From: Escherichia phage Baskent_phicoli_1
Sequence record: PP766721.1
Length of the DNA stretch: 39,500 nucleotides
Direction: 5' to 3' (one strand)
Part shown: positions 1 to 34,485 of the stretch, one piece after another
How positions within the stretch are numbered: the first letter of the stretch is position 1
How the letters are laid out: every line of letters starts with the position of its first letter
Notes under the pieces: generated by a model
What the model was told of the DNA's origin: nothing
What the model saw: only the letters and a program-made list of their open reading frames with translations
The model's database searches: none
Made by a program: the position numbers and the translations under genes

Positions 1-300
1 CATCGTCTGATTTACACCGAGAACTTCGGTCCAATCCCGGATGGTCTGGTAGTCAGGCATAAATGCGACAACCGTTGGTGCGTTAACCCTGAGCACTTAG
101 AGCTTGGGACTCAGCGTGATAACATACACGACTGCGTTACCCGTGGTCGTCACAATAACGCCAAGCTGTCAGACCAGCAGGTCCGTGAAATCCGAAAGGA
201 TAAGCGTAGCTCCCGTGCTGTAGCGGCTGACTATGGCATTGACCATAAGGGCGTATTGGCGGTCAGGAACCGTAAGTCTTATCAACATGTGGAGGACTGA
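1..300 (+). CDS. HNH homing endonuclease, 3' portion (ORF starts at 39165 and continues across the window wrap; stop TGA 298-300)
   Basis: Frame open from base 1; translation ...AHRLIYTENFGPIPDGLVVRHKCDNRWCVNPEHLELGTQRDNIHDC... is a classic HNH motif; bases 1-252 repeat 39249-39500. Confidence 0.85.
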   Translation, partial: HRLIYTENFGPIPDGLVVRHKCDNRWCVNPEHLELGTQRDNIHDCVTRGRHNNAKLSDQQVREIRKDKRSSRAVAADYGIDHKGVLAVRNRKSYQHVED

Positions 301-1167
301 ATGTCTGAAAAGAAAATAGCTCTGGTGCTGGACGGTGATTACCTAGTATTCTCTTCTATGGCTGCTGCCGAGGATGAGACTGACTGGGGTGATGATATTT
401 ATACTCTGATTTGTGACCACGCCAAGGCTCGTCGTATCCTTGAGAACACCATCGCTGAAATCGTTAAGAAGCGCAAGGCGTGGAAAGACGCTAAGATTGT
501 GATGTGCTTCACCGATGACGTGAACTGGCGCAAGTCAATATTACCTACCTATAAGGCTAACCGTAAAGGTTCTCGCAAGCCTGTAGGTTACAAGAAGTTC
601 GTAGCCGAAGTGATGGCTGACCCACGGTTCAACAGCTTCCTTCGTCCTACGCTTGAGGGTGATGACTGTATGGGTATCATCGGGACACGACCTCAGATTG
701 TAGGTTGTGACCATGCGGTTCTGGTATCATGCGATAAGGATTTCAAGACCATCCCGAACTGTGAGTTCTTCTGGTTAACCACTGGTGAAATCCTGAGTCA
801 TACGACTGCTGAGGCAGACTACTGGCACATGGAGCAAACCATCAAGGGTGACACTACAGATGGCTACGGCGGGATTCCGGGGATGGGTGAGGACACCACT
901 CGTGCGTTCCTTGACGAGCCGTACTACTTCGTGCAGGAGAGCCGTGAGCTTAAGACTGGCAAGAACAAAGGCCAGATTAAGACTGAGTGGAAGAAGCATC
1001 CTAAGCGTGAAGACATGACGCTGTGGGACTGCATGGTAACTCTGGCTGCTAAAGCTGGGATGACCGAGGAGGAACTTCTGGTCCAAGCTCAGGTCGCTCG
1101 TATTTGCCGAGCCTCCGACTACGACCCTAAGTCCAAGGAGGTCATCCTGTGGACACCATCCATGTAA
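301..1167 (+). CDS. gp6: 5'-3' exonuclease (T7 gene 6 homolog)
   Basis: 288 aa; CDHAKAR, FTDxVNWRK, YKANRK, KPVGY, LEGDDxMG, SCDKDFKTIPNC, QTIKGDxTDGY, SGKNKGQ, LWDC, AKAGMTEE all align with remembered T7 gp6. Confidence 0.95.
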   Translation: MSEKKIALVLDGDYLVFSSMAAAEDETDWGDDIYTLICDHAKARRILENTIAEIVKKRKAWKDAKIVMCFTDDVNWRKSILPTYKANRKGSRKPVGYKKFVAEVMADPRFNSFLRPTLEGDDCMGIIGTRPQIVGCDHAVLVSCDKDFKTIPNCEFFWLTTGEILSHTTAEADYWHMEQTIKGDTTDGYGGIPGMGEDTTRAFLDEPYYFVQESRELKTGKNKGQIKTEWKKHPKREDMTLWDCMVTLAAKAGMTEEELLVQAQVARICRASDYDPKSKEVILWTPSM

Positions 1168-1293
1168 TTTACTGGGCCGGACTTCTGGCCCTTTACTGCA
1201 TGTACAAGTGGTTCGGGTCGAACAACCGCCCTAAACACTGAGTCTAACCGATAGTCATATCCTATCAATCCAACAGTCATCCATAGGTGAAAC

Positions 1294-1316
1294 ACTAAAC
1301 TATCACTATAGGGACT
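1294..1316 (+). promoter_or_regulatory. Phage RNAP promoter (phi6.5-like), predicted +1 G at 1311
   Basis: TAAACTATCACTATAGGGA; identical to T7 promoters from -8 to +6, distinct at -15 to -9. Confidence 0.8.
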
Positions 1317-1377
1317 TTAGGACCTAAGATATGACTATAAGATAGACTTTAGTCTTAACTTAAAGAGGAGATTCAAG

Positions 1378-1650
1378 ATGGCGATTAATGCTATTGAAAA
1401 CGTTGTTAAGCAGTTACAGGAAGAAAGACTTGATGTCCCGAACATCTCCCAGTCTGCCATCCAGTTCCTGCACGTACTGTTTAACGCAAGCTACGCTGAG
1501 AAGACGGGAGCTATAAGTCTCCTCAAGCAGCAGGGCTACAGCGATGCGTTCATTGCCGGGTTCATCAAGGGTCTCCAGTATTGTTCTGACACTCTCGACT
1601 CTGCGATTGCTATGCGTCGTGAGCTGAAAGATACCGTTCAGTTCGATTAA
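1378..1650 (+). CDS. Hypothetical protein at gene 6.5 position
   Basis: 90 aa ORF with AAGAGGAG Shine-Dalgarno upstream; synteny only. Confidence 0.65.
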   Translation: MAINAIENVVKQLQEERLDVPNISQSAIQFLHVLFNASYAEKTGAISLLKQQGYSDAFIAGFIKGLQYCSDTLDSAIAMRRELKDTVQFD

Positions 1651-1664
1651 CTGTAGGAGGGACT

Positions 1665-1889
1665 ATGTGTTTCAGTCCAAAGATTAGCACTCCGAAGCCT
1701 TCGGTCCAAGCACCTGAACCAGCACCTCTGAGTGAGGAAGTTGCGTCAGTTGACATCGGGGCTGAATCGGATGTGGACACAAACGAGACCAAAGGTATCA
1801 AAGACCTTAAGGTTAAGAAGGAGTCTGCACCAAAAGATAAATCGTCAGTGAGCCGCGCTATGCGAGCCTCTGGCGTAAACATGGGGTAA
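1665..1889 (+). CDS. gp6.7: Virion protein gp6.7 homolog
   Basis: 74 aa; N-terminus MCFSPKI...EPAPL matches remembered T7 gp6.7; basic C-terminus. Confidence 0.8.
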   Translation: MCFSPKISTPKPSVQAPEPAPLSEEVASVDIGAESDVDTNETKGIKDLKVKKESAPKDKSSVSRAMRASGVNMG

Positions 1890-1893
1890 GACA

Positions 1894-2298
1894 ATGCTAC
1901 CATATCTCAACTCACGCGAAGGTCGCCACATGTGTGCCTGTCGCCTCTGGGAAGACGGGCAGTCTAACTTCAAGTCATTCGAGGACTTCAAGGCTCATAC
2001 TTACCGTATGGCTGACGAGTTCGACGGTGAAGAGTACACAATCTACGATGTCTCAGGTCAACCAGTAGCGTATCTCTACATGCTGGCTACCGCATCTTGG
2101 CACCGACCTACTCCCGGTCTTGACCTTTCAATCGTCGCTATTCGTCGTGACTCGCAGTCCTCCCGCAAGGTTCTTGAGACTGTCAGACACATCATAGACG
2201 AAGAGTGCAAGCGTTGGGGTCTTGGCTGGTATTCTCGTGTCAAGCATGTTTCCGGGTCGGTAGACATCGTAACAACTAAGGAGATTAATCGTGGGTAA
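1894..2298 (+). CDS. gp7: Virion protein at gene 7 position (host range protein-like)
   Basis: 134 aa, size and position match T7 gp7; tight coupling to neighbours. Confidence 0.65.
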   Translation: MLPYLNSREGRHMCACRLWEDGQSNFKSFEDFKAHTYRMADEFDGEEYTIYDVSGQPVAYLYMLATASWHRPTPGLDLSIVAIRRDSQSSRKVLETVRHIIDEECKRWGLGWYSRVKHVSGSVDIVTTKEINRG

Positions 2299-2539
2299 AT
2301 CAATCAGTAAGGCCTTCAAGAAAGTGGTGAAAAGTACGCTAGGGACCGTTGGGCTTGGCTCTGATGACGCGCCTAAGGTTGTTGAGGCTCAGACCCCAGC
2401 AGCACCAGTGGAAGTACCGAACGACAAAGTGGAGGATGTGGATACTGAAGCAACCGCATCTGACGAGAAGAAAGTGAAGCGTTCCGGTAAGCGGACCCTT
2501 CAGGTCTCTCGCACCTCGGGTGGCGGTATTTCTATTTAA
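2291..2539 (+). CDS. gp7.3: Tail assembly/ejected protein gp7.3 homolog (GTG start)
   Basis: 82 aa; MGK...KAxKKVxKS N-terminus and SGGGIxI C-terminus as in T7 gp7.3. Confidence 0.8.
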   Translation: MGKSISKAFKKVVKSTLGTVGLGSDDAPKVVEAQTPAAPVEVPNDKVEDVDTEATASDEKKVKRSGKRTLQVSRTSGGGISI

Positions 2540-2550
2540 GGAGGTGACGA

Positions 2551-4119
2551 ATGGCTGAACGCGAAGGGTTCGCTGCTGAAGGAGCCAAAGCGGTCTATGA
2601 CCGACTGAAGAACGGGAGACAGCCATATGAGACACGCGCTCAGAACTGCGCTGCTGTCACTATCCCGTCACTGTTTCCTAAGGAGTCCGACAACTCATCT
2701 ACTGAGTATACCACTCCGTGGCAATCCGTAGGTGCTCGCTGCTTGAACAATTTGGCTGCAAAGCTGATGTTGGCGTTATTCCCTCAGTCACCATGGATGC
2801 GACTGACAGTCTCCGAATATGAGGCAAAGACCTTGAGTCAGGACTCAGAGGCGGCTGCTCGTGTTGACGAAGGGCTGGCTATGGTCGAGCGTGTGTTGAT
2901 GGCTTACATGGAGACTAACAGTTTCCGCGTCCCATTATTCGAGGCGCTGAAGCAGCTTATCGTCTCAGGTAACTGTCTGCTCTACATTCCAGAGCCTGAA
3001 CAGGGTACCTACAGTCCCATGCGAATGTACCGCTTAGTGTCTTACGTTGTTCAACGTGATGCGTTCGGTAACATCTTGCAGATTGTGACTCTCGACAAGG
3101 TAGCGTTTAGTGCTCTACCGGAAGACGTGAAGTCTCAGCTCAACGCAGACGACTATGAGCCTGACACCGAGCTGGAAGTATATACACACATCTACCGTCA
3201 GGACGACGAGTATCTGCGCTACGAGGAAGTGGAAGGCATTGAGGTGACAGGGACCGATGGTTCCTACCCGCTGACTGCATGTCCATACATCCCGGTACGA
3301 ATGGTTCGACTGGATGGTGAAGACTACGGTCGTTCTTACTGCGAGGAGTATCTGGGAGACCTCAACTCGCTGGAGACGATTACAGAAGCTATCACCAAAA
3401 TGGCTAAGGTAGCCTCCAAGGTGGTGGGCCTCGTTAACCCGAACGGTATCACGCAACCTCGACGTCTGAACAAGGCGGCTACAGGTGAGTTCGTGGCTGG
3501 TCGCGTTGAGGACATCAACTTCCTGCAACTGACGAAAGGTCAGGACTTTACGATTGCCAAGTCGGTGGCTGATGCTATCGAGCAACGTTTAGGCTGGGCC
3601 TTCCTTCTTAATAGTGCTGTTCAGCGTAATGCCGAGCGGGTCACTGCTGAAGAGATTCGTTATGTTGCTGGCGAACTGGAGGCGACCTTAGGTGGCGTGT
3701 ACTCAGTTCAGTCACAAGAGCTTCAGTTACCTATAGTCCGTGTGCTGATGAACCAACTTCAGTCTGCTGGCATGATTCCTGACCTTCCGAAAGAAGCGGT
3801 AGAACCTACTGTATCCACTGGTCTGGAAGCTCTGGGCCGTGGTCAGGACTTAGAGAAGCTAACTCAGGCAGTCAACATGATGACCGGGCTACAGCCTCTG
3901 CAACAGGACCCAGACATTAACTTGCCGACCCTGAAGCTGCGACTGCTGAATGCCTTAGGCATTGACACCGCTGGTCTACTGCTGACTCAGGACGAGAAGC
4001 TGCAACGTATGGCTGAACAATCCGCTCAAGGAGCTGTGGTCAACGGTGCGTCTGCTGCTGGTGCTAACATGGGCGCTGCTGTAGGTCAAGGAGCTGGTGA
4101 GGATATGGCTCAGGCCTAA
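2551..4119 (+). CDS. gp8: Portal (head-to-tail connector) protein, gene 8
   Basis: 522 aa; size and position as T7 gp8 (536 aa); GGAGG SD. Confidence 0.93.
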   Translation: MAEREGFAAEGAKAVYDRLKNGRQPYETRAQNCAAVTIPSLFPKESDNSSTEYTTPWQSVGARCLNNLAAKLMLALFPQSPWMRLTVSEYEAKTLSQDSEAAARVDEGLAMVERVLMAYMETNSFRVPLFEALKQLIVSGNCLLYIPEPEQGTYSPMRMYRLVSYVVQRDAFGNILQIVTLDKVAFSALPEDVKSQLNADDYEPDTELEVYTHIYRQDDEYLRYEEVEGIEVTGTDGSYPLTACPYIPVRMVRLDGEDYGRSYCEEYLGDLNSLETITEAITKMAKVASKVVGLVNPNGITQPRRLNKAATGEFVAGRVEDINFLQLTKGQDFTIAKSVADAIEQRLGWAFLLNSAVQRNAERVTAEEIRYVAGELEATLGGVYSVQSQELQLPIVRVLMNQLQSAGMIPDLPKEAVEPTVSTGLEALGRGQDLEKLTQAVNMMTGLQPLQQDPDINLPTLKLRLLNALGIDTAGLLLTQDEKLQRMAEQSAQGAVVNGASAAGANMGAAVGQGAGEDMAQA

Positions 4120-4137
4120 ACTATCACTATAGGAACA
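4115..4137 (+). promoter_or_regulatory. Phage RNAP promoter (phi9-like), +1 G about 4132
   Basis: TAAACTATCACTATAGGAAC overlapping gene 8 stop. Confidence 0.75.
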
Positions 4138-5120: not shown

Positions 5121-5143
5121 ACTAAACTATCACTATAGGGAGA
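5121..5143 (+). promoter_or_regulatory. Phage RNAP promoter phi10 (full consensus), +1 G about 5138
   Basis: TAAACTATCACTATAGGGAGA directly upstream of major capsid gene with long leader and strong SD. Confidence 0.85.
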
Positions 5144-7180: not shown

Positions 7181-7407
7181 TGGCTAGTCACAACCTGAAG
7201 ATTCACCGCCAGCATTTTGGTCCGGTACAGCTAGGTCTAAAGACAGCAGAGCTTAGACTTAACGACCGGGACTTTAAGGTTGGTGACTGGCTTATCCTGA
7301 ATGAGTGGGACAACGGGTATACTGGACAACAGGTAGCGCGTAAGGTTGTCCACATTGCTGACGTTGGTGACATCGCTGAAGGATACGTCCTAATGAGTAT
7401 GATTTAA
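7180..7407 (+). CDS. DUF3850/ASCH-like small protein (extra gene, not in T7)
   Basis: 75 aa; HNLKIHxxHFxPVxxGxKTAELRLNDRDFKVGDWLILNEW fits the DUF3850 (ASCH/PUA-like) signature from memory; ATGA-coupled to gene 11. Confidence 0.55.
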   Translation: MASHNLKIHRQHFGPVQLGLKTAELRLNDRDFKVGDWLILNEWDNGYTGQQVARKVVHIADVGDIAEGYVLMSMI

Positions 7408-9782: not shown

Positions 9783-9831
9783 AGGGCCTATAGATTTACC
9801 TTAACTATCACTATAGGGGACTATAGGCCCT
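9783..9831 (+). repeat. 11-bp perfect inverted repeat (AGGGCCTATAG / CTATAGGCCCT) enclosing promoter phi13
   Basis: Arms at 9783-9793 and 9821-9831 read directly; promoter core in the 27-nt loop. Confidence 0.8.
9799..9821 (+). promoter_or_regulatory. Phage RNAP promoter (phi13-like), +1 G about 9816
   Basis: TTAACTATCACTATAGGGGA. Confidence 0.75.
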
Positions 9832-16100: not shown

Positions 16101-17080
16101 GTACGACCAACTACCTGTTAGATGCTGGACGTCAAGGCTTTCTGTCTGACATCGTGGAGCATAGCCTGACTGGTAGTAAGCGTAAGTTCGATGACCGCTG
16201 GCTGAAGACAGCTGGTATCTCTGACGAGCAGTGGAAGGGCATTAAGTCCCTAATCCGTGAGTCAGTGACTCGTGGTCCAGACGGGAAGTACACCATCAAG
16301 GATAAGAAGGCGTTCAGTCAGGACCCAAGGGCTATGGACCTGTGGCGTATGGGAGACACCATCGCTGACGAAACGTTACTCCGTCCTCATAAGCTGTCAA
16401 ACATGGACGCCAAGGCTTATGGTCCTCTCGCTAAGACTGTCCTTCAGTTTAAGAACTTCGTCATCAAGTCCATCAATGGTCGAACAATGCGAACCTTCTA
16501 TAACGCCACGAAGAACAACCGAGCGATGGATGCTGCTCTGTCCACTGTGATGTCTATGGGCCTTGCTGGTATCTACTACATGGCTCAGGCACACATCAAG
16601 GCTTACGCTATGCAGGATGGTCGAGACCGTGACTATCTCAAGCAAGCTCTGGACCCGACGATGATTGGCTATGCAGCTCTATCGCGTAGTTCACATCTTG
16701 GTGGACCACTTGGGGTAGCTAACATTCTTGGGGGTATCGCTGGGTACGAGGACACTAAGATGCTCCGTTCGTCTATCCTACCTCGTTCGCCTACAGAGAA
16801 GCCTGAACGTGCCATCGCGTATGGTGCATCTACAAGTGACCCTGTGATGAATGTTGTTGGTAACTTCTTGGAGCAGGTTCCAGCTTTCGGATATGCTGCT
16901 AACGTTGGCGCTTCGGCTTACAACTTGGCTGGCTACCTCAAGGCCGATACTCGTGTCAACGAGCGTGACTACATGACAGGGATGTATAATACGTTCCGTG
17001 AACTGGTTCCGAACGACCCCATTACCCAGAGGCTGTTGCTTGGAACGTTTGAGGAGCAAGGCATCCACATCAAGGACTAA
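13193..17080 (+). CDS. gp16: Internal virion (core) protein, gene 16
   Basis: 1295 aa; long collinear similarity to T7 gp16 from about residue 190 (STWFGF, RWNxHxWxxEELxxIR, VITGGSPxNL, AGxIGAGVDPLxYVP, ARETARN, VRSPTGMQSGASGK, TYVPHVY, SFLEARNLFDSD, NYLLDAxRQG, AMDLWR); N-terminal about 120 aa differ. Confidence 0.95.
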   Translation: MATRGIRNNNPGNIRVSKDQWEGMTGDDGAFVTFDSPESGVRALGKNLLSYGRQGYDSIEKIINRWAPPNENDTQAYIDSVVAATGIPATQSLDLSNPDTLSALAQAISFHETGSRYNPEVYQQGVARALNGISPKTPPVSANVFDALTEGLKAKPKVALGENLPTAAGLNIEGQAPEAPNESFGEMFYKATGETMQERENRSTWFGFGAATEAEVKNSMVGVAIRAGQTEDSLDVIGDVFNPTRWNNHKWSREELDQIRNAGVLPQYYGVITGGSPQNLTELINLALENQKLDQEKAKAGTGAQLAAGVIGAGVDPLTYVPIAGQVGKGGKLVNKMFTVAAQSGALAGVSEMARTSVAGGDAHVAEAILGGALFGGGMTAIADGLGRALGRNTNEFAGPATRLEARETARNVDGQDLSRLPIQEGEQTFIHQGVKFADVPNEPGSVRLEDGSILIGENPLNPKTRQVFDEVIEPERAAAGVNLGGLTEIGLKLLRSENPEIRGVAADLVRSPTGMQSGASGKIGTTASDVFERLRAVDHRFYNDIDDAVTEALKDPYFQTAFWRDSGAFRQDIYQRVSMAIEDGSGNLKAELTPGELKVYDLLKNQFDAKREMMENPAMFGRPDAKSIFPGSRFKGTYVPHVYSKQMKELYIKELGSTEALQEAIKKSWLTSYASRPEVKKRVDEALLEADPTLTPEGLAAAVDKYANDKAYGISHTEQFERSSVMEENINGLVGLENNSFLEARNLFDSDMSIVLPNGQTFSVNNLREWDMDKIVPAYNRRVNGDIAIMAGTGKTTKDMKDLVETMMNKAGDDGKLKGEVSTLRDTLKILTGRARRDGADDAAFATVMRTMTDLSFFAKNAYMGVQNLTEIGGMLARGNVRALLHGVPIFRDLAFRNKKVGASEIKDLHSVLFGKELDDSIRPSKQDVIDRLRSYSDLGRGTATALGTAKYYTGELAVRSPFTKVLNGTTNYLLDAGRQGFLSDIVEHSLTGSKRKFDDRWLKTAGISDEQWKGIKSLIRESVTRGPDGKYTIKDKKAFSQDPRAMDLWRMGDTIADETLLRPHKLSNMDAKAYGPLAKTVLQFKNFVIKSINGRTMRTFYNATKNNRAMDAALSTVMSMGLAGIYYMAQAHIKAYAMQDGRDRDYLKQALDPTMIGYAALSRSSHLGGPLGVANILGGIAGYEDTKMLRSSILPRSPTEKPERAIAYGASTSDPVMNVVGNFLEQVPAFGYAANVGASAYNLAGYLKADTRVNERDYMTGMYNTFRELVPNDPITQRLLLGTFEEQGIHIKD

Positions 17081-17098
17081 ACTATCACTATAGGAAAC
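17076..17098 (+). promoter_or_regulatory. Phage RNAP promoter (phi17-like), +1 G about 17093
   Basis: TAAACTATCACTATAGGAAA overlapping gene 16 stop. Confidence 0.75.
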
Positions 17099-22427: not shown

Positions 22428-22450
22428 ACTTAACTATCACTATAGGGAAG
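22428..22450 (+). promoter_or_regulatory. Phage RNAP promoter (phiOR-like), +1 G about 22445
   Basis: CTTAACTATCACTATAGGGAAG downstream of terminase gene. Confidence 0.75.
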
Positions 22451-22949: not shown

Positions 22950-22987
22950 ACCTACGGTCCTTGACCTACAGTGGCTGTGGCCTACAG
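22950..22987 (+). repeat. CCTAC(G/A)G heptamer repeats just inside the inferred right genome end
   Basis: CCTACGG...CCTACAG...CCTACAG read directly; analogous to T7 CCTAAAG repeats near the terminal repeat. Confidence 0.55.
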
Positions 22988-23026
22988 TAGTGACGATGAG
23001 TTTTGGACCAAAAGTTTGAGACCACA

Positions 23027-23210
23027 TCTCACAGTTCAAGAACCTCAAGTCTCCCCATAGGCCCTCTTTCAGTCCAGACCAAAGGCCCTACCCAGTCTAT
23101 CATAAGGTTGGACCGATGGTCAAGACTTCAGGTCAACGATAGGTTGAGGCTATGGCTGGAGGTCGGGACGATAGGTTGGGACTATGGGTCTGTCTCTGAG
23201 TCTCTATCTG
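23027..23210 (+). repeat. Inferred left genome end and direct terminal repeat (collapsed to one copy here)
   Basis: TCTCACAGTTCAAGAACC...CCCCATAGG matches the T7 left end TCTCACAGTGTACGGACC...CCCCCATAGGGGG; the 3' boundary of the repeat is a guess. Confidence 0.45.
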
Positions 23211-23240
23211 TATAGTGTTATAGTATAACATTACGTCCTA

Positions 23241-23310
23241 CACCTACAGTCTCACTACCTACAGTCTCCGACCATGAGACACTCACTACCTACAGTCATA
23301 GACCTACAGA
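23241..23310 (+). repeat. Array of four (A)CCTACAG(T) heptamer repeats downstream of the terminal repeat
   Basis: ACCTACAGTCTC, CTACCTACAGTCTCC, CTACCTACAGTCAT, GACCTACAGATAA read directly. Confidence 0.6.
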
Positions 23311-23422
23311 TAATAGACATAAAGCTATAGACTTAAGGTCTAAGACATGTTAGTCAAAAGACTACATCCTCTTACACCATGGGGCCGACGATAGCTTAAT
23401 TAATATTATTTCAAATTACCTA

Positions 23423-23452
23423 TTGACTATAGGTCTAGACTGTGGCTTAATA
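23423..23452 (+). promoter_or_regulatory. Host sigma70-type early promoter (A1-like)
   Basis: TTGACT at 23423-23428, 17-bp spacer, CTTAAT; AT-rich UP-like tract upstream; T7 A1 also has TTGACT. Confidence 0.55.
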
Positions 23453-23563
23453 GCTTCCGTCAACACGACACGGCAACAACCGGATAGTGAAGACGCCGGG
23501 TCATCCCGGTTAAGTAGACAGCCTGATAAGTCATACGAACAACAGGCAGATGACAGAAAGTAG

Positions 23564-23593
23564 TTGACAAGCAGTAACGACTTAAAGTAGTAT
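23564..23593 (+). promoter_or_regulatory. Host sigma70-type early promoter (A2-like)
   Basis: TTGACA at 23564-23569, 18-bp spacer, TAGTAT; flanks match the T7 A2 region (ACAGGxxTTGACAA). Confidence 0.6.
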
Positions 23594-23711
23594 GTACCAC
23601 GTAGCAAGATGGCGTAGGGATAGGAACCGAGAAACCTGCCAGAGGCCAGCCAAGGATAAGGCACCAGCCGTGAGTCGAATTCGGTCACTCACCGCATAAA
23701 AGAATAACAGG

Positions 23712-23740
23712 TTGACAGCCTCCTTTAAAAGCTGTAAGCT
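23712..23740 (+). promoter_or_regulatory. Host sigma70-type early promoter (A3-like)
   Basis: TTGACA at 23712-23717, 17-bp spacer, TAAGCT; downstream CCACATCGAAACGACGGTGA matches T7 A3 context CCACATGAAACGACAGTGA. Confidence 0.6.
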
Positions 23741-23941
23741 GTGCCACATCGAAACGACGGTGAAGCCTAACACTGAAACAGGCTAGCACGGCGACGACAG
23801 CCAATGCGAATGCTCTTTAACAATCTGGATAAACTCTTAATGTGCGCCGATAGCGACTAACTACAGGGTCTTTGAGTCTACATCTGAAGGCCCTGACTGA
23901 TAGTCACTAACATACACAAACAACTTTGAGAGGATATAACT

Positions 23942-24277
23942 ATGGAACGTAACGCTAACGCATACTATGAGCTGCTGGCTGCAACCGTTGAAGCATTTAA
24001 CGAGAGCATTCAGTACGACAAAATAGCTGAAGGTGATGACTACAGCGATGCGCTGCATGAAGTCGTAGACAGTCATGTTCCGCACTATTACCACGAGATT
24101 TTCACGGTGATGGCTGCTGATGGTATTGACCATGAGTTCGAAGACTCTGGGCTGATGCCTGAGACCAAGGACGTAACGCGTATACTACAAGCTCGCATTT
24201 ATGAAGCACTGTATAACGATGTATCTAATAGCTCGGATGTAGTCTGGTTCGAGTCTACTGAGGAGGAATGCGAGTGA
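23942..24277 (+). CDS. ocr: Ocr (gene 0.3) DNA-mimic anti-restriction protein
   Basis: 111 aa, very acidic; VPHYYxxIFxVMAxxGIDxEFEDSGLMPxTKDVxRILQARIYE nearly identical to T7 Ocr. Confidence 0.92.
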   Translation: MERNANAYYELLAATVEAFNESIQYDKIAEGDDYSDALHEVVDSHVPHYYHEIFTVMAADGIDHEFEDSGLMPETKDVTRILQARIYEALYNDVSNSSDVVWFESTEEECE

Positions 24278-24429
24278 TGGTAACTTATGGCCTATGCCAG
24301 CACCACGTCACCAACGCCCGGCTTATGGTCAAGACCGGGCAGTTAAACCACGATGCGATTATGCGTCACCTGAAGGCGGTCTATGAGGGCCGCAAGCGTA
24401 TACACGACAGTTTGCACGCTGAGGTGTAA
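24277..24429 (+). CDS. Small early protein at gene 0.4 position (50 aa)
   Basis: ORF below track cutoff, ATG overlapping ocr stop (TGATG); function unassigned. Confidence 0.4.
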   Translation: MVTYGLCQHHVTNARLMVKTGQLNHDAIMRHLKAVYEGRKRIHDSLHAEV

Positions 24430-24456
24430 CTTACTGGCGGGTACTGAGTGATAAAT

Positions 24457-24490
24457 GAGAGGTCATCGACTGATAGGTGGCCTCAAAGAT
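24457..24490 (+). promoter_or_regulatory. Conserved structured element (putative RNase III site, R0.5-like)
   Basis: GAGAGGTCAT-N11-GTGGCCTCAAAGATTA, variant of the AGGTCAT...GTGGCCTT element. Confidence 0.45.
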
Positions 24491-24517
24491 TACCACTTGC
24501 ATTAATAGGAGTTAACT

Positions 24518-24685
24518 ATGAAATTTACAATCATCGCACTTTATGTAACCATTATTCTATCTTGGCTTACTGCGGTGCTCACTGATGGGAACGCATTACG
24601 ACTGGGATGGCTGGCAGTGGACATTATATTCTCTCCGGTAGGGGTCGTGCGGGGCATCTTGATGTGGTTTGGATTGGTGGGATAA
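24518..24685 (+). CDS. Small hydrophobic early protein (55 aa, predicted membrane)
   Basis: MKFTIIALYVTIILSWLTAVL... with AGGAG SD 6 nt upstream; below track cutoff. Confidence 0.4.
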   Translation: MKFTIIALYVTIILSWLTAVLTDGNALRLGWLAVDIIFSPVGVVRGILMWFGLVG

Positions 24686-24774
24686 ACTATGAGTATTGGA
24701 CATTGGGTATGCCTAGCGCCAGTTATCTCGATGATAGGTTATGGGATATATGATTGTATTAAACGGAAATCACT

Positions 24775-24972
24775 ATGAGTCTTGCACTATTGATAGCCAT
24801 AGGATATGGACTTATCGCCTACGTGCTGATGAGAGACATCAACAAAGCGCGTAAAGTCTACAAATTCAACTATGTACGGCTGGGCCGCTGGACTGTACGT
24901 CAACCTAACGGACGATTCATGCGAAACTTAGCGAACGTCTGGGACATAGCAACTCTGGGAGGTAAACTGTGA
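24775..24972 (+). CDS. Small early protein with N-terminal TM helix (65 aa)
   Basis: MSLALLIAIGYGLIAYVLM then basic tail; coupled upstream and downstream. Confidence 0.5.
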   Translation: MSLALLIAIGYGLIAYVLMRDINKARKVYKFNYVRLGRWTVRQPNGRFMRNLANVWDIATLGGKL

Positions 24973-25397
24973 TGGAAAAGCTATGCAGAACATGCCACGC
25001 TTTAAAGCCGCTGGAAGAGTACCACAAGCATAAAACCTCCAAAGACGGCAGGGAGAGTCAGTGTAAGACTTGCCGCAATAAGCAGATTATGAAGACCAGG
25101 AAACTACGATACAGTAAGTCTGCTAGCTTCAGGGAGTCTAAACGGAACGAAACCCTGCGTAAACTGTACGGGATTACAGTAGATGACTATGAGGAGATGT
25201 TTAAGCGGCAGGGCGGGGTGTGCGCTATCTGTCATCAGCCGGAAACTGGTAACATACGAATGGCGGTAGACCACTGTCATGCAAGTGGTAAAGTTCGCGG
25301 GCTACTGTGTAAAAACTGCAACACTGCGCTAGGAAACCTAAAAGACTCGATTGAGATTCTCACAAACGCAATCACATATCTTCAGGAGAACAATTAA
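24969..25397 (+). CDS. Endonuclease VII-family (HNH-fold) nuclease, probable homing endonuclease
   Basis: 142 aa; GGVCAICHQPETGNIRMAVDHCHASGKVRGLLCKNCNTALG aligns with T4 endonuclease VII GKCLICQREL...HLDHDHELNGPKAGKVRGLLCNLCNAAEG; extra N-terminal CxxC...CxxC. Confidence 0.8.
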   Translation: MMEKLCRTCHALKPLEEYHKHKTSKDGRESQCKTCRNKQIMKTRKLRYSKSASFRESKRNETLRKLYGITVDDYEEMFKRQGGVCAICHQPETGNIRMAVDHCHASGKVRGLLCKNCNTALGNLKDSIEILTNAITYLQENN

Positions 25398-25399
25398 TA

Positions 25400-25708
25400 A
25401 TGAGCAAGTCAAACGGTCTGGCATACGCAATGGTGGTAGCAATGGAAGAAGCAATCATGGCCCGTAAGTCCCGCTCTGAACGCGAACAAGCGGAGCGTGA
25501 TATGGTCCTGACTAAGCGCATGTTGGCTGAGGGCCACAAGGTAGACACCATGATTTATGTCTACGGGTCCACCAACATGAAGTCTGAAGACGGTAAGCTG
25601 CTGCTGGCAGGTAGACGGGCTGACATCCAACGGGCAAGCCTGAAGCACACGACACGCGGTGACTTCAGTCATCTTCACGCTAACCAACTGATATGCAAGC
25701 AATTCTGA
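25400..25708 (+). CDS. Hypothetical early protein (102 aa)
   Basis: ORF with compact spacing after the Endo VII-like gene; no motif recognised. Confidence 0.55.
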   Translation: MSKSNGLAYAMVVAMEEAIMARKSRSEREQAERDMVLTKRMLAEGHKVDTMIYVYGSTNMKSEDGKLLLAGRRADIQRASLKHTTRGDFSHLHANQLICKQF

Positions 25709-25730
25709 CTTAACTATCACTATAGGACTC
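25708..25730 (+). promoter_or_regulatory. Phage RNAP promoter immediately upstream of the RNAP gene, +1 G about 25725
   Basis: CTTAACTATCACTATAGGACTC, one or two mismatches to the window consensus, 75 bp before gene 1 ATG. Confidence 0.65.
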
Positions 25731-25799
25731 AAGGTCTAAGACTCCAAGTGAAAGACCAAAGAGACTTTAAGTGAAAGACTAATAACAAGGACTTTAAGT

Positions 25800-28481
25800 A
25801 TGAGCGTCATCTCTATTGACAAACACGACTTCTCTGATGTGTCAAACGCCATTGAGCCGTTTAACCTGCTGGCCGACCACTACGGGCAAGACCTTGCAGT
25901 CAAACAGCTTCAGCTTGAGCATGAGGCATACACTGAAGGCGAGCGACGTTTCATCAAAAACCTTGAGCGACAGACTGAGCGCGGGGAACTGGCAGACAAT
26001 CAGGTCGCCAAGCCTTTGATGCAGACTCTGGTTCCTAAGATTGCGCAAGCCGTCAGGGAGTGGCACGAAGGTCCAGACGGGAAGCTGTCAACCTCTCGTC
26101 CGAGCGTAGCGTTCACCATGTTGAGCACTGAAGAGAAGGCCGTCAAGGACCGCTCTATGCGTATCTCCTGTGAGTCTGCTGCGGTCATCATACTGAAGGT
26201 CATACTCTCCAAGCTGGTCAAGCCTGAAGGTATACCGATTACACCGATGGCCTCAGCGATAGGTCGCACACTTGAGGACGAAATCCGCTTCGGTCGCATC
26301 CGTGACAAGGAGAAGGAGCATTTCAAGAAGGCGATAGCTGAGAACTTGAACAAGCGAGCTGGGGTATCCTACAAGAAAGCCTACATGCAAGCTGTCGAGG
26401 CATCCATGCTGGAGCAAGGCCAACTGGAAGATGCATGGGGAACTTGGAGTCCGACCGAGGCTGTCCACGTTGGAATCAAGATGCTTGAGATCGTCATCCA
26501 GTCAACACAGCTGGTCGAGCTTAAGCGTTATGGTGCTGGCAATGCAGCAGCTGACGTCGAGATGGTCCACCTGACAGACTTCTGGGTCAAGAAGATGGCA
26601 CAACGAGGATTCAGCCTTGCGGGTATCGCTCCAGTCTACCAGCCTTGCGTAGTTCCACCTAAGCCGTGGACTGGTGTAGTGGGAGGTGGATACTGGGCCA
26701 AAGGTCGCAGACCGTTGCCATTGATTCGCTTAGGGTCTAAGTCTGCGGTGGCACGTTATGAAGACGTATACATGCCTGAAGTCTATGACGCTGTGAATAT
26801 CATCCAGAATACACCTTGGAAAGTGAACAAGAAGGTTCTGGACGTGGTGAACATGGTCGAGAAGTTGAACAACACGCCTATTGATGACATCCCTCAGATG
26901 GAGCCACTGAAGCCTGAAGACTATGCGGGCGAGACTGAAGAGGAACTCAAGGCATGGAAGAAAGCTGCTGCTGGTATCTACCGCCGAGAGAAGGCCCGGC
27001 AGTCACGCAGATTGTCACTAAGCTTTATCGTCAACCAAGCGAACAAATTCTCTCAGTTCAAGGCCATCTGGTTCCCGTACAACATGGACTGGCGCGGACG
27101 CGTCTACGCTGTTCCGATGTTCAACCCTCAGGGTAACGACATGCAAAAAGGGCTCCTTACTCTGGCAGTCGGCAAGCCCATTGGTGCCGATGGTTTTAAA
27201 TGGCTGAAGGTCCACGGTGCAAACTGCGCGGGTATTGATAAAGTCACCTTCGAGGAGCGCATCAAGTGGGTGGAAGACAACCACGACAACATCATGGCTG
27301 CTGCTAAGGCACCGATGGACAGCATTGAGTGGTGGGGAAAGTTAGACTCTCCATTCTGCTTCCTAGCGTTCTGCTTCGAGTATGCTGGCGTAATGCACCA
27401 CGGATTGTCTTACTCCTGCTCGCTGCCGATAGCGTTCGATGGGTCATGCTCTGGGATTCAACACTTTAGCGCGATGCTTCGTGATCACATCGGTGGACAT
27501 GCAGTAAACCTGACGCCTTCAGGTAAGGTCCAAGACATCTACCGCATCGTGTCTGACCGCATTGAGGAAGAGCTTAAAGTCCTGCTGGTTAAGGGCACGG
27601 ACAACGAGGTGGTCACTCACGAGGACAAGAAAACTGGTGAGATTACCGAACGTCTCAAGCTGGGGACACGAGAGCTGGCCCGTCAGTGGCTGACTTACGG
27701 TATGTCACGCAAGGTCACTAAGCGCTCAGTCATGACTCTGGCCTACGGGTCGAAAGAGTATGGCTTCGCAGACCAAGTTTACGAGGACATCGTGATGCCA
27801 GCGATTGACTCAGGGTCTGGCGCTATGTTCACCGAACCAAGCCAAGCGTCCCGCTTCATGGCTAAGATGATTTGGGAAGCTGTGAGCGTGACCGTAGTTG
27901 CTGCTGTTGACGCGATGAAGTGGCTTCAGGGTGCTGCCAAGCTGCTGGCTGCTGAAGTGAAGGACAAGAAGACTGGAGAAATCCTGAAGCCTTGCCTTCC
28001 GGTACACTGGGTCACACCTGATGGTTTCCCTGTCTGGCAGGAATACCGCAAGAAGGATACCACTCGTCTGAACCTGATGTTCTTAGGGTCATTCAACCTT
28101 CAACCTACGGTCAACAAGGGCACGAAGAAAGAGCTGGACAAGCACAAGCAGGAGTCAGGCATTAGCCCGAACTTCGTCCACTCACAAGATGGGAGCCACC
28201 TACGCAAGACTGTAGTCCACACTCACCGCAAGTATGGTGTTATGTCATTCGCAGTGATTCACGATAGCTTCGGGACCATCCCGGCTGACGCTGAGTATCT
28301 GTTCCGTGGTGTCCGTGAGACGATGGTCGAGACCTACCGCGACAACGACGTGCTGCTTGACTTCTACGAGCAGTTCGAATACCAGCTTCATGAGAGCCAG
28401 CGCGACAAGTTGCCCGAGCTTCCGAAGAAAGGTAAACTGAACATCGAAGACATTCTGTCTTCAGACTTTGCATTCGCTTAA
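25800..28481 (+). CDS. gp1: Single-subunit DNA-dependent RNA polymerase, gene 1
   Basis: 893 aa; collinear with T7 RNAP throughout (NxAKxDFSD, PFNxLADHYG, FPYNMDWRGRVYAV, MFNPQGNDMxKGLLTLA, DGSCSGIQHFSAMLRD, VTKRSVMTLAYGSKE, VHWVTPDGFPVWQEY, HKQESGIxPNFVHSQDGSHLRKTV, IHDSFGTIPADA, FAFA C-terminus). Confidence 0.98.
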   Translation: MSVISIDKHDFSDVSNAIEPFNLLADHYGQDLAVKQLQLEHEAYTEGERRFIKNLERQTERGELADNQVAKPLMQTLVPKIAQAVREWHEGPDGKLSTSRPSVAFTMLSTEEKAVKDRSMRISCESAAVIILKVILSKLVKPEGIPITPMASAIGRTLEDEIRFGRIRDKEKEHFKKAIAENLNKRAGVSYKKAYMQAVEASMLEQGQLEDAWGTWSPTEAVHVGIKMLEIVIQSTQLVELKRYGAGNAAADVEMVHLTDFWVKKMAQRGFSLAGIAPVYQPCVVPPKPWTGVVGGGYWAKGRRPLPLIRLGSKSAVARYEDVYMPEVYDAVNIIQNTPWKVNKKVLDVVNMVEKLNNTPIDDIPQMEPLKPEDYAGETEEELKAWKKAAAGIYRREKARQSRRLSLSFIVNQANKFSQFKAIWFPYNMDWRGRVYAVPMFNPQGNDMQKGLLTLAVGKPIGADGFKWLKVHGANCAGIDKVTFEERIKWVEDNHDNIMAAAKAPMDSIEWWGKLDSPFCFLAFCFEYAGVMHHGLSYSCSLPIAFDGSCSGIQHFSAMLRDHIGGHAVNLTPSGKVQDIYRIVSDRIEEELKVLLVKGTDNEVVTHEDKKTGEITERLKLGTRELARQWLTYGMSRKVTKRSVMTLAYGSKEYGFADQVYEDIVMPAIDSGSGAMFTEPSQASRFMAKMIWEAVSVTVVAAVDAMKWLQGAAKLLAAEVKDKKTGEILKPCLPVHWVTPDGFPVWQEYRKKDTTRLNLMFLGSFNLQPTVNKGTKKELDKHKQESGISPNFVHSQDGSHLRKTVVHTHRKYGVMSFAVIHDSFGTIPADAEYLFRGVRETMVETYRDNDVLLDFYEQFEYQLHESQRDKLPELPKKGKLNIEDILSSDFAFA

Positions 28482-28787: not shown

Positions 28788-29258
28788 ATGTTCGGTAAGT
28801 CAAAACTTAAAGCACAAATCAAAGAGTTGAGCATGAAGGTGGCATACTTGGAGCGAGCCATAAAGGTACGGGACTATGACAACGAGAGACTGAAGGCTAA
28901 ACTTGCTGAATCAGAGCGTAAGCGCCTAACGCCACCAGCGGCTGTAACTGTCAAGCGTATGGTCGGCATCAAGTTCAAGGCACTGTTCGACGGTAAGTAT
29001 CAACCGACTGAGTTCAAGACAGGCCCGGGACCATGTGGCAAGACGGTGACGCACTTCACCATAAGTTGGACAGAGCGAAGTATGACCGTCCACCAGCATC
29101 ATACGGATGGCTCTCAGAAGGACTTCGTGTACCGACTGAGCGACATCGACGGTCGAATACAGTATGACTACGAGCAAGTTAAAATCTACGGAGAAGAGGC
29201 CAAACGTGAGTCAGCGCTTCAGGCATTCATGCGGATAGGGCCGCGCATCCTATTCTAA
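28788..29258 (+). CDS. Hypothetical early protein (156 aa), helical/charged N-terminus
   Basis: ORF with GAAGAGG SD; absent from T7 at this position. Confidence 0.6.
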   Translation: MFGKSKLKAQIKELSMKVAYLERAIKVRDYDNERLKAKLAESERKRLTPPAAVTVKRMVGIKFKALFDGKYQPTEFKTGPGPCGKTVTHFTISWTERSMTVHQHHTDGSQKDFVYRLSDIDGRIQYDYEQVKIYGEEAKRESALQAFMRIGPRILF

Positions 29259-29276
29259 ACTATCACTATAGGATTA
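29254..29276 (+). promoter_or_regulatory. Phage RNAP promoter (phi1.1-like), +1 G about 29271
   Basis: TAAACTATCACTATAGGATT. Confidence 0.75.
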
Positions 29277-30928: not shown

Positions 30929-30960
30929 AACCCAGTGGTCTTAGGACTACTGGGTTTCTT
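30929..30960 (+). terminator. Intrinsic terminator (TE-like) after the ligase gene
   Basis: AACCCAGT...ACTGGGTT 8-bp stem with 12-nt loop followed by TCTTT; same position as T7 TE. Confidence 0.7.
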
Positions 30961-30983
30961 TACGTCTAGGACACCAGCTAGAC

Positions 30984-31006
30984 CCTAAGCTATCACTATA
31001 GGACAA
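30984..31006 (+). promoter_or_regulatory. Phage RNAP promoter variant, +1 G about 31001
   Basis: CTAAGCTATCACTATAGGACAA (G at -12). Confidence 0.65.
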
Positions 31007-31921: not shown

Positions 31922-32080
31922 ATGAGTGACGCCGAGAAGAAATACATCGTTGAGCTTGAGGGCCGCACTCAGTACTTCGAGGTTCCTGTGTACGCAAAGT
32001 CTCTTGAAGAGGCTACCCTGAAGTCCCAAGAGTATGAGGACGCTGGGTTTGTGGTCGGACGGATTCGTCCTGAGACCTAA
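31922..32080 (+). CDS. gp2: Host RNA polymerase inhibitor gp2 homolog
   Basis: 52 aa ORF below track cutoff; [13 protein letters not shown]...[10 protein letters not shown] matches T7 Gp2 FEVPIYAETLDEA...AGFEVTRVRP; AAGGAG SD. Confidence 0.75.
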
Positions 32081-32098
32081 ACTATCACTGTAGGACAG
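32076..32098 (+). promoter_or_regulatory. Phage RNAP promoter variant (phi2.5-like), +1 G about 32093
   Basis: TAAACTATCACTGTAGGACAG (G at -3). Confidence 0.6.
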
Positions 32099-34251: not shown

Positions 34252-34467
34252 ATGATTAAACTTATCGAATTTCTGGGTCGTCTGGTGGTGCGTGGTTATC
34301 GTCGCGCTGCGGCTATGGAACGAAAGGTAGCAGAGAAGTCTGCTGACGGTGCGGCTGATGCTGCTGCTCTGGCTGACAAGCTAACCATCACATCACTGGA
34401 AGCTGGCATGAGGGCGCGTCAAGCTGATACCAAGGCTGACCAGTTGGCCCAGTTCTTCAAAGCCTAA
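34252..34467 (+). CDS. Hypothetical small protein (71 aa)
   Basis: ORF with AAGGAGA SD; Ala-rich; ends QLAQFFKA. Confidence 0.55.
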   Translation: MIKLIEFLGRLVVRGYRRAAAMERKVAEKSADGAADAAALADKLTITSLEAGMRARQADTKADQLAQFFKA

Positions 34468-34485
34468 ACTATCACCTTAGGGATG
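34463..34485 (+). promoter_or_regulatory. Degenerate phage promoter-like sequence upstream of gene 4
   Basis: TAAACTATCACCTTAGGGAT: two mismatches in the -4/-3 melting region. Confidence 0.35.

Follow-up and report, generated by a model that had tools for sequence, protein, structure and literature searches.

A predicted cognate promoter directly upstream of the RNA polymerase gene in a K1F-like phage and its relatives

Introduction

In the textbook model of T7, the polymerase gene is strictly an early gene transcribed by the host. The stretch of DNA analysed here (the window; 39,500 nucleotides of Escherichia phage Baskent_phicoli_1, PP766721.1) is the circularly permuted genome of a K1F-like phage (Kayfunavirus, Studiervirinae), in which all long open reading frames (ORFs) lie on the plus strand. 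The initial annotation of this sequence had placed a near-consensus phage promoter immediately before gene 1, the gene of the phage RNA polymerase, and had suggested that a promoter read by the product of the gene it precedes would form a positive-feedback loop. This raises the question of whether the site is a genuine member of the phage promoter family, whether its position sets this phage apart from its relatives, and which role it may have been selected for.

Results

Position and parts of the site

The 22-mer CTTAACTATCACTATAGGACTC occupies positions 25709-25730 on the plus strand. Extended by one base at its 5' end, it becomes the 23-mer ACTTAACTATCACTATAGGACTC (25708-25730, +), a predicted cognate promoter of the phage polymerase that spans positions -17 to +6 and matches the family 18-mer without a mismatch. 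The initial annotation had located the site correctly, except that its start at 25708 is one base early for the 22-mer. Alignment to T7-type promoters puts the predicted initiating G (+1) at 25725, inside the core CACTATAGG (25718-25726). From this G to the ATG at 25800 the distance is exactly 75 nt, a value that had been estimated as about 75 bp. The site is intergenic. It begins at the stop codon of the last early ORF (25400-25708, +), which encodes a gp0.38-like protein of 102 aa (phrog_7066, 3.2e-25; no Pfam domain found) and abuts the promoter so closely that base 25708 is both the last base of its TGA and promoter position -17; gene 1 follows 75 nt after the predicted start. The initial transcribed bases are GGACTC, and a GGAC start is shared with the middle promoters whose +1 lies at 31001 and 32093. 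Judged by its sequence, the site between the 0.38-like gene and gene 1 is a 'middle'-type promoter with a predicted initial transcript GGAC....

The promoter family of the genome

The 18-mer TTAACTATCACTATAGGA has 10 matches at up to three mismatches in the window, all on the plus strand, compared with an expectation of 0.00 from 100 dinucleotide shuffles. A relaxed scan added an eleventh, weaker family site at 34467, and the family consensus over -17 to +6 reads CTAAACTATCACTATAGG. When a position weight matrix (PWM) was built from the other 10 sites with the gene 1 site left out, the latter scored 30.5 bits versus 17.6 bits for the best non-member on either strand, a gap of 13 bits. The 11 members range from 29.3 to 34.8 bits, with the gene 1 site tenth (second-lowest). 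The proposed phage promoter directly upstream of the polymerase gene is a full member of the family at the reported place, and by its score it is probably below maximal strength. Its second-lowest score and its GGACTC start, versus GGGAGA at the capsid promoter, suggest that it may be weak.

All of the other members also lie on the plus strand. The next phage promoter 3' of gene 1, a PWM and 18-mer match, is found at 29254-29276 (+1 at 29271, GGATTA), and middle promoters follow at 30984-31006 (+1 at 31001, GGACAA) and, before the gene 2.5 homologue, at 32076-32098 (+1 at 32093, CACTGTAGG). The weak eleventh site, a middle promoter with two mismatches before the primase/helicase gene (34463-34485, +1 at 34480, CACCTTAGG), is kept in K1F and BHUENT8. 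The remaining sites are located at the position of K1F phi6.5 (1294-1316, +1 at 1311), before the gene 9 homologue (4115-4137, +1 at 4132), before the major capsid gene (5121-5143, +1 at 5138, GGGAGACC), before the gene 13 homologue (9799-9821, +1 at 9816), before the tail fibre/spike gene (17076-17098, +1 at 17093) and, as a phiOR-type promoter near the right end of the genome, after the terminase gene (22428-22450, +1 at 22445).

The early region and the leader of gene 1

Gene 1 (25800-28481, +) encodes a single-subunit RNA polymerase of 893 aa with the specificity loop TRLNLMFLGSFNLQ; the protein shares 98.8% identity with the K1F polymerase and 63.9% with that of T7. The left end of the genome, which is T7-like (TCTCACAG...), lies at about 23027 and is followed by sigma-70-like promoters. 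The best of these, TTGACA-18-TAGTAT at 23564-23593 (+), is a consensus match only, with 10 of 12 consensus positions, and presumably gives rise to the earliest transcripts of gene 1; other such sites near the left end were identified by eye, again as consensus matches. Short ACCTACAGT-like repeat clusters (about 22950-23320) flank the presumed genome end/terminal-repeat region, and the record of Citrobacter phage CR8 annotates a similar (acctacagtcaac)3 repeat.

The early ORFs comprise an ocr-like ORF, several small ones of unknown function, an Endonuclease VII/HNH-type ORF and the gp0.38-like ORF. The endonuclease ORF (24969-25397, +; 142 aa; PF02945, 1.8e-29; phrog_2633) looks like the insertion of a mobile (homing) endonuclease into the early region. 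On the 5' side of gene 1, the nucleotide sequence resembles that of K1F only from about 25627 onwards. On the 3' side, gene 1 is followed by two small ORFs, the phage promoter with +1 at 29271, the ligase gene and a TE-like hairpin, AACCCAGT...ACTGGGTT plus a T-run (30929-30965, +). This hairpin, with a perfect 8-bp stem and a 12-nt loop, was read from the sequence, as the pattern scan missed loops longer than 8 nt. Its position matches that of TE in T7 and T3, and it is presumed to be the end of early transcription by the host polymerase.

The predicted leader of the gene 1 transcript (25725-25799, +) is 75 nt long and 62% A+T. A Shine-Dalgarno-like AAGGA is read at 25787-25791 (+), 8 nt before the ATG; it is kept in Kayfunavirus sequences, and CR8 has AACAG at the aligned columns. 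The pattern scan found no terminator-like element between +1 (25725) and the ATG (25800). The predicted fold of the leader is weak (-13.5 kcal/mol), no better than that of shuffles. The leader also contains two 21-nt direct repeats, AGACTCCAAGTGAAAGACCAA and AGACTTTAAGTGAAAGACTAA (25739-25782, +), with 86% identity and a spacing of 23 nt. The word GACTNNAAGT occurs 12 times in the window versus about 2 expected, three of the 12 being in this leader, and GACT..AAG-like words are found after other promoters as well as in the leaders of Dev2, CR8 and EcpYZU01.

The same site in close relatives

Superposition of the locus on that of K1F (DQ111067 / NC_007456, about 2476-2498) revealed an identical 22-mer at the same distance from gene 1 and a leader that is the same but for single bases, with no substantive difference from the window. 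The site carries no annotation in either K1F record, neither of which annotates promoters. A promoter at the gene 1 position was kept in 29 of 29 sequences of relatives inspected, some of which are the same phages in two collections. Among the IMG/VR contigs of relatives, some of which correspond to phages with a GenBank record, 20 of 20 have it at a distance of about 75-90 nt from gene 1. It is likewise present in PE3-1, Dev2, BHUENT8, PRF-SP4, CHRF_20120, GW1, Ro103C3lw and EcpYZU01. A homologous region occurs in 227 phage records, of which 223 cover most of the query, and promoter integrity was checked in a sampled subset of these. In PE3-1 (KJ748011, 2874-2896), the homologous 23-mer ACTTAACTATCACTATAGGACTC is labelled 'host RNAP promoter'. 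This label is probably wrong, as the 23-mer is a perfect promoter of the phage type.

The idea that the arrangement is unusual did not hold: it is identical in K1F, kept in every Kayfunavirus sequence examined, and present also in CR8, gh-1, Pf1 ERZ-2017 and RpY2. The initial annotation had itself named the possibility that the arrangement is routine in relatives and without regulatory role. Comparison with close relatives bears out the routine part, the same layout being present in all relatives sampled.

Co-variation with the specificity of the polymerase

In some relatives the block from -12 to -8 of the site has changed. The ACTAT of the window is replaced there by CCCTC or GGTAC in GW1, Ro103C3lw, EcpYZU01 and CR8. 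Comparison of this block with the specificity loop of the polymerase yields three pairs, in which N748/N756 goes with ACTAT, D748/R756 with CCCTC and K748 with GGTAC, and the gene 1 site tracks the loop type in each of the three promoter types. In Cronobacter phage GW1, every one of the 12 promoters is of the AAACCCTCAC / AAACCCTCACTATAGG type, with no K1F-type site, and the specificity loop of the polymerase is T3-like: T7 positions 748 and 756 are D and R, both being N in the window. The GW1 gene 1 site, gattAAACCCTCACTATAGGactcaaggtct, has the specificity block swapped, while the end of the upstream ORF and the leader are nearly as in the window. The block is swapped genome-wide in EcpYZU01, and at the gene 1 site in Ro103C3lw, of which that region was read. 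CR8 (Caroctavirus), whose polymerase is 78.9% identical and has a K11-like K748, uses promoters of the AAGGAAGGTACAC / AAGGAAGGTACACTATAGG type. Its site at the gene 1 position, annotated as 'predicted promoter' (3356-3378), matches the CR8 consensus perfectly.

The assignment of loop to block is supported by the finding that T7 RNA polymerase engineered to carry the K1F loop works on the promoter of the K1F subfamily and is orthogonal for it (PMC3458549). Since the site keeps its place while its recognition block has changed with the polymerase in at least two shifts of specificity, it is under selection as a promoter. In our judgement of the sequences, this co-variation is the strongest evidence for promoter function short of experiments.

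Two specificities also occur within Kayfunavirus, AACTATCAC with N748/N756 and AAACCCTCAC with the T3-like D748/R756, in highly similar surroundings. As read from these genomes, this pair is a natural switch of polymerase-promoter specificity, and the promoter-swap series of K1F, GW1 and CR8 is a clean natural example of polymerase-promoter co-evolution.

Layout in other T7-like phages

Promoters of further phages were collected by unbiased k-mer motif discovery on whole genomes, a method validated by its recovery of the annotated promoters of T7, T3 and K11. These three phages have no cognate promoter directly before gene 1 but a phiOL 2.6-2.8 kb upstream of it. The statement of the initial annotation that T7 gene 1 has no strong phage promoter directly upstream is essentially right according to the RefSeq annotations of T7, T3 and K11. 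The slot before gene 1 is occupied in T7 and T3 by the minor E. coli promoter C, which is of the host type, and the T3 record also places the RNase III site R1 there; this C/R1 slot corresponds in its location to the gene 1 site of the window. Their phiOL, to the left of the host promoters, is nevertheless also a phage promoter upstream of gene 1, and in principle the phage polymerase of T7, T3 and K11 could read from it into gene 1. No gene-1-proximal promoter was found in the Berlinvirus Carena, in Vibrio phage ICP3 or in SP6, the last of which has a sigma-70-type promoter there. Far upstream, Carena has no phage promoter detected at up to four mismatches, and ICP3 and SP6 have a weak distant match only.

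Similar to the window, gh-1 (NC_004665, 939-961) has a perfect cognate promoter about 100 nt before gene 1, annotated as 'phi1; putative gh-1 RNAP promoter', with no far-upstream one (no phiOL) and a putative R1 nearby. It differs in having no early genes before gene 1, so that its phi1 also lies near the left end. Pf1 ERZ-2017, a relative of gh-1, does have early genes and has kept the promoter about 100 nt upstream of gene 1, again with no far-upstream one. CR8 has its promoter in the same slot as the window, between the 0.38-like gene and gene 1, with a different promoter specificity and polymerase loop. Ralstonia phage RpY2 has two tandem gene-1-proximal promoters and one weak match (three mismatches) 6.7 kb upstream. 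The tandem cognate promoters, GATTAACCCACACTAGAG and GATTAACCCGCACTATAGG (7305-7370), lie 158 and 116 nt before the polymerase gene, and the ligase gene is upstream of gene 1 in this phage.

A phage-specific promoter directly before the polymerase gene, phi1, has also been described for LUZ100, where its start was mapped by ONT-cappable-seq (PMC10134795). The authors, who termed the arrangement peculiar, proposed that host read-through makes the first polymerase and that transcription is then self-amplified (PMC10134795). LUZ100 has a MarR-like repressor and an integrase, and its promoter was proposed as a lysis/lysogeny switch, whereas no regulator or integrase of this kind was found among the early-region products scanned in the window. 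A synthetic 'autogene', T7 gene 1 under a T7 promoter, was reportedly made by Dubendorff and Studier in 1991. Like the locus in the window, the autogene places the polymerase gene under its own cognate promoter, giving autocatalytic expression. It differs in being engineered and in needing tight repression, whereas the arrangement in the window is natural, presumably primed by the host and part of a lytic programme of minutes. The autogene concept was employed in later work (PMC1500874, PMC6395690).

The layout is already known, being annotated in CR8 and gh-1 and discussed for LUZ100, but it is little studied, and some phage genome papers are silent on it. The gene-1-proximal promoter recurs across the family, and T7 is not representative in this respect.

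Discussion

Alternative explanations

The site is very probably functional as a promoter, given its membership in the family and its co-variation with the polymerase. A chance match or a decaying relic without function is extremely improbable. The shuffles gave no matches by chance, the score lies far above that of the best non-member, and every relative sampled has kept the site, with adaptation to at least two new specificities; at the sequence level, the co-variation refutes this reading. It is also conceivable that the selected feature is an R1-type RNase III hairpin in the early mRNA made by the host polymerase, with the promoter-like sequence merely forming one of its arms. An imperfect hairpin is indeed predicted at 25717-25774 (+), in the read-through RNA only, with the promoter core as the 5' arm (UCACU..AGG) and CUU..AGUGA as the 3' arm. 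The core pairs with this segment about 50 nt downstream with a probability above 0.9 in both the K1F and the GW1 type. In the Dev2 type, a change of T to A at -2 makes TATCACTAAAG a perfect complement of the downstream CTTTAGTGATA over 11 nt, and in the T3 annotation R1 occupies the same place, with several of the RNase III sites overlapping promoters. However, no such hairpin is predicted for EcpYZU01 or CR8, the prediction for the Dev2 type is ambiguous, folding is energetically no more favourable than in shuffles (z = 0.47 and 0.82), and the region has no match in Rfam. The specificity block lies outside the paired bases and yet tracks the polymerase, which a hairpin arm would not need to do. 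We therefore consider the hairpin very unlikely to be what selection has kept. Because the 5' arm would be missing from a transcript started at 25725, the fold model implies different structures for the two forms of the RNA, and this difference may be of relevance. In the Dev2-type sublineage, CACTAAAGG is found in the gene 1 promoter alone, beside the perfectly complementary CTTTAGTGATA downstream.

If the site works as a promoter, its selected role may still be another than the supply of polymerase. It could be a relocated phiOL, serving in the take-over of genome entry and/or in the priming of replication, with the extra gene 1 mRNA as a by-product. In T7, phiOL and an AT-rich stretch form a secondary origin, and T7 RNA polymerase can pull the genome into the cell from phiOL. 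No phiOL-type phage promoter was found between the left end and gene 1 in the window (23027-25707), K1F (1-2470), Dev2 (1-3350), GW1 or CR8; together with gh-1 and Pf1 ERZ-2017, these are all the genomes with a proximal promoter whose left end was scanned, and such a site is absent from every one of them, with the reverse in T7, T3 and K11, where phiOL is present and the proximal site absent. In the window, a partial match GACTATAGG at 23425 was rejected as a phiOL candidate, as it is without the specificity block and overlaps a sigma-70-like site. A rule that every genome has either phiOL or a gene-1-proximal promoter fails for Carena, which has neither at up to four mismatches, and ICP3 and SP6 offer only weak distant sites; the either/or pattern is consequently not a rule. 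The leader is moderately A+T-rich (62-68%) compared with the genome mean of 50% and contains phased direct repeats, but the richest 60-nt windows of the genome reach 73-77%, and because the leader is unremarkable by this measure the idea of a replication origin is weak. In addition, the early genes all precede the site, which is about 2.7 kb away from the left end (about 23027) rather than in the few hundred bp that enter first. Taken together, we regard a relocated phiOL as an unlikely account of what the site was selected for, and a role of this type would not exclude feedback. The conservation indicates that the promoter is selected, though the selected effect may be on downstream genes, genome entry or replication and not on a boost of gene 1.

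A further-reaching idea is that the gene-1-proximal promoter is an obligatory hand-over point that replaces phiOL in the lineages of K1F, CR8 and gh-1, and that the linked promoter-polymerase pair is the unit in which new specificities arise. The promoter is only 75 nt from the polymerase gene, which suggested the pair as such a unit, and two specificities in one genus with near-identical flanks would fit it. We hold this idea to be rather doubtful and offer it as a speculation.

A model of polymerase expression

The reading that we prefer is that the site is a working cognate promoter of the phage's own polymerase, which makes gene 1 both an early and a middle gene with self-amplifying expression; on the sequences compared here, we consider this likely. 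In the proposed scheme, the host polymerase would start at the sigma-70-type promoters of the left end and read the early region including gene 1 up to the TE-like terminator. The first molecules of phage polymerase would then recognise the gene 1 site, which would be the first cognate promoter to enter the cell, start at G25725 and transcribe gene 1 again with a 75-nt leader and a Shine-Dalgarno site. Gene 1 would become early and middle at once, and the production of polymerase would amplify itself. Transcripts from 25725 would run on into genes 1.1-1.3 and beyond, and in T7 the phage RNA polymerase is known to pass TE-type terminators without stopping. Later, by analogy with T7, the loop might be limited by lysozyme, which would inhibit the polymerase at weaker promoters.

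The scheme is based on the observed family membership, position, conservation and co-variation of the site; that transcription begins at 25725, how large the feedback is and how it is shut off we infer. Positive feedback as suggested by the initial annotation is plausible and would be a natural consequence of the layout, the same idea having been proposed for LUZ100. Self-amplification is, however, not essential to this lifestyle, as T7, T3, K11, the Berlinvirus Carena, ICP3 and SP6 lack a gene-1-proximal promoter and do without it.

Implications

The polymerase gene is very probably wired to its own promoter in K1F, in about 220 database genomes of the genus, in CR8, in gh-1-like phages and in a Ralstonia phage. 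For annotation, this concerns a site that is unannotated in K1F and mislabelled, in all probability, in PE3-1. The arrangement would be relevant for modelling the timing of infection in phages with a gene-1-proximal promoter. It would also be relevant for the engineering of K1F-type phages, K1F being a workhorse of synthetic biology, and of orthogonal polymerase circuits, as a natural 'autogene' would exist here. The locus does not represent a new kind of system, but it offers a useful correction to the T7-centred expectation of how the polymerase gene is expressed.
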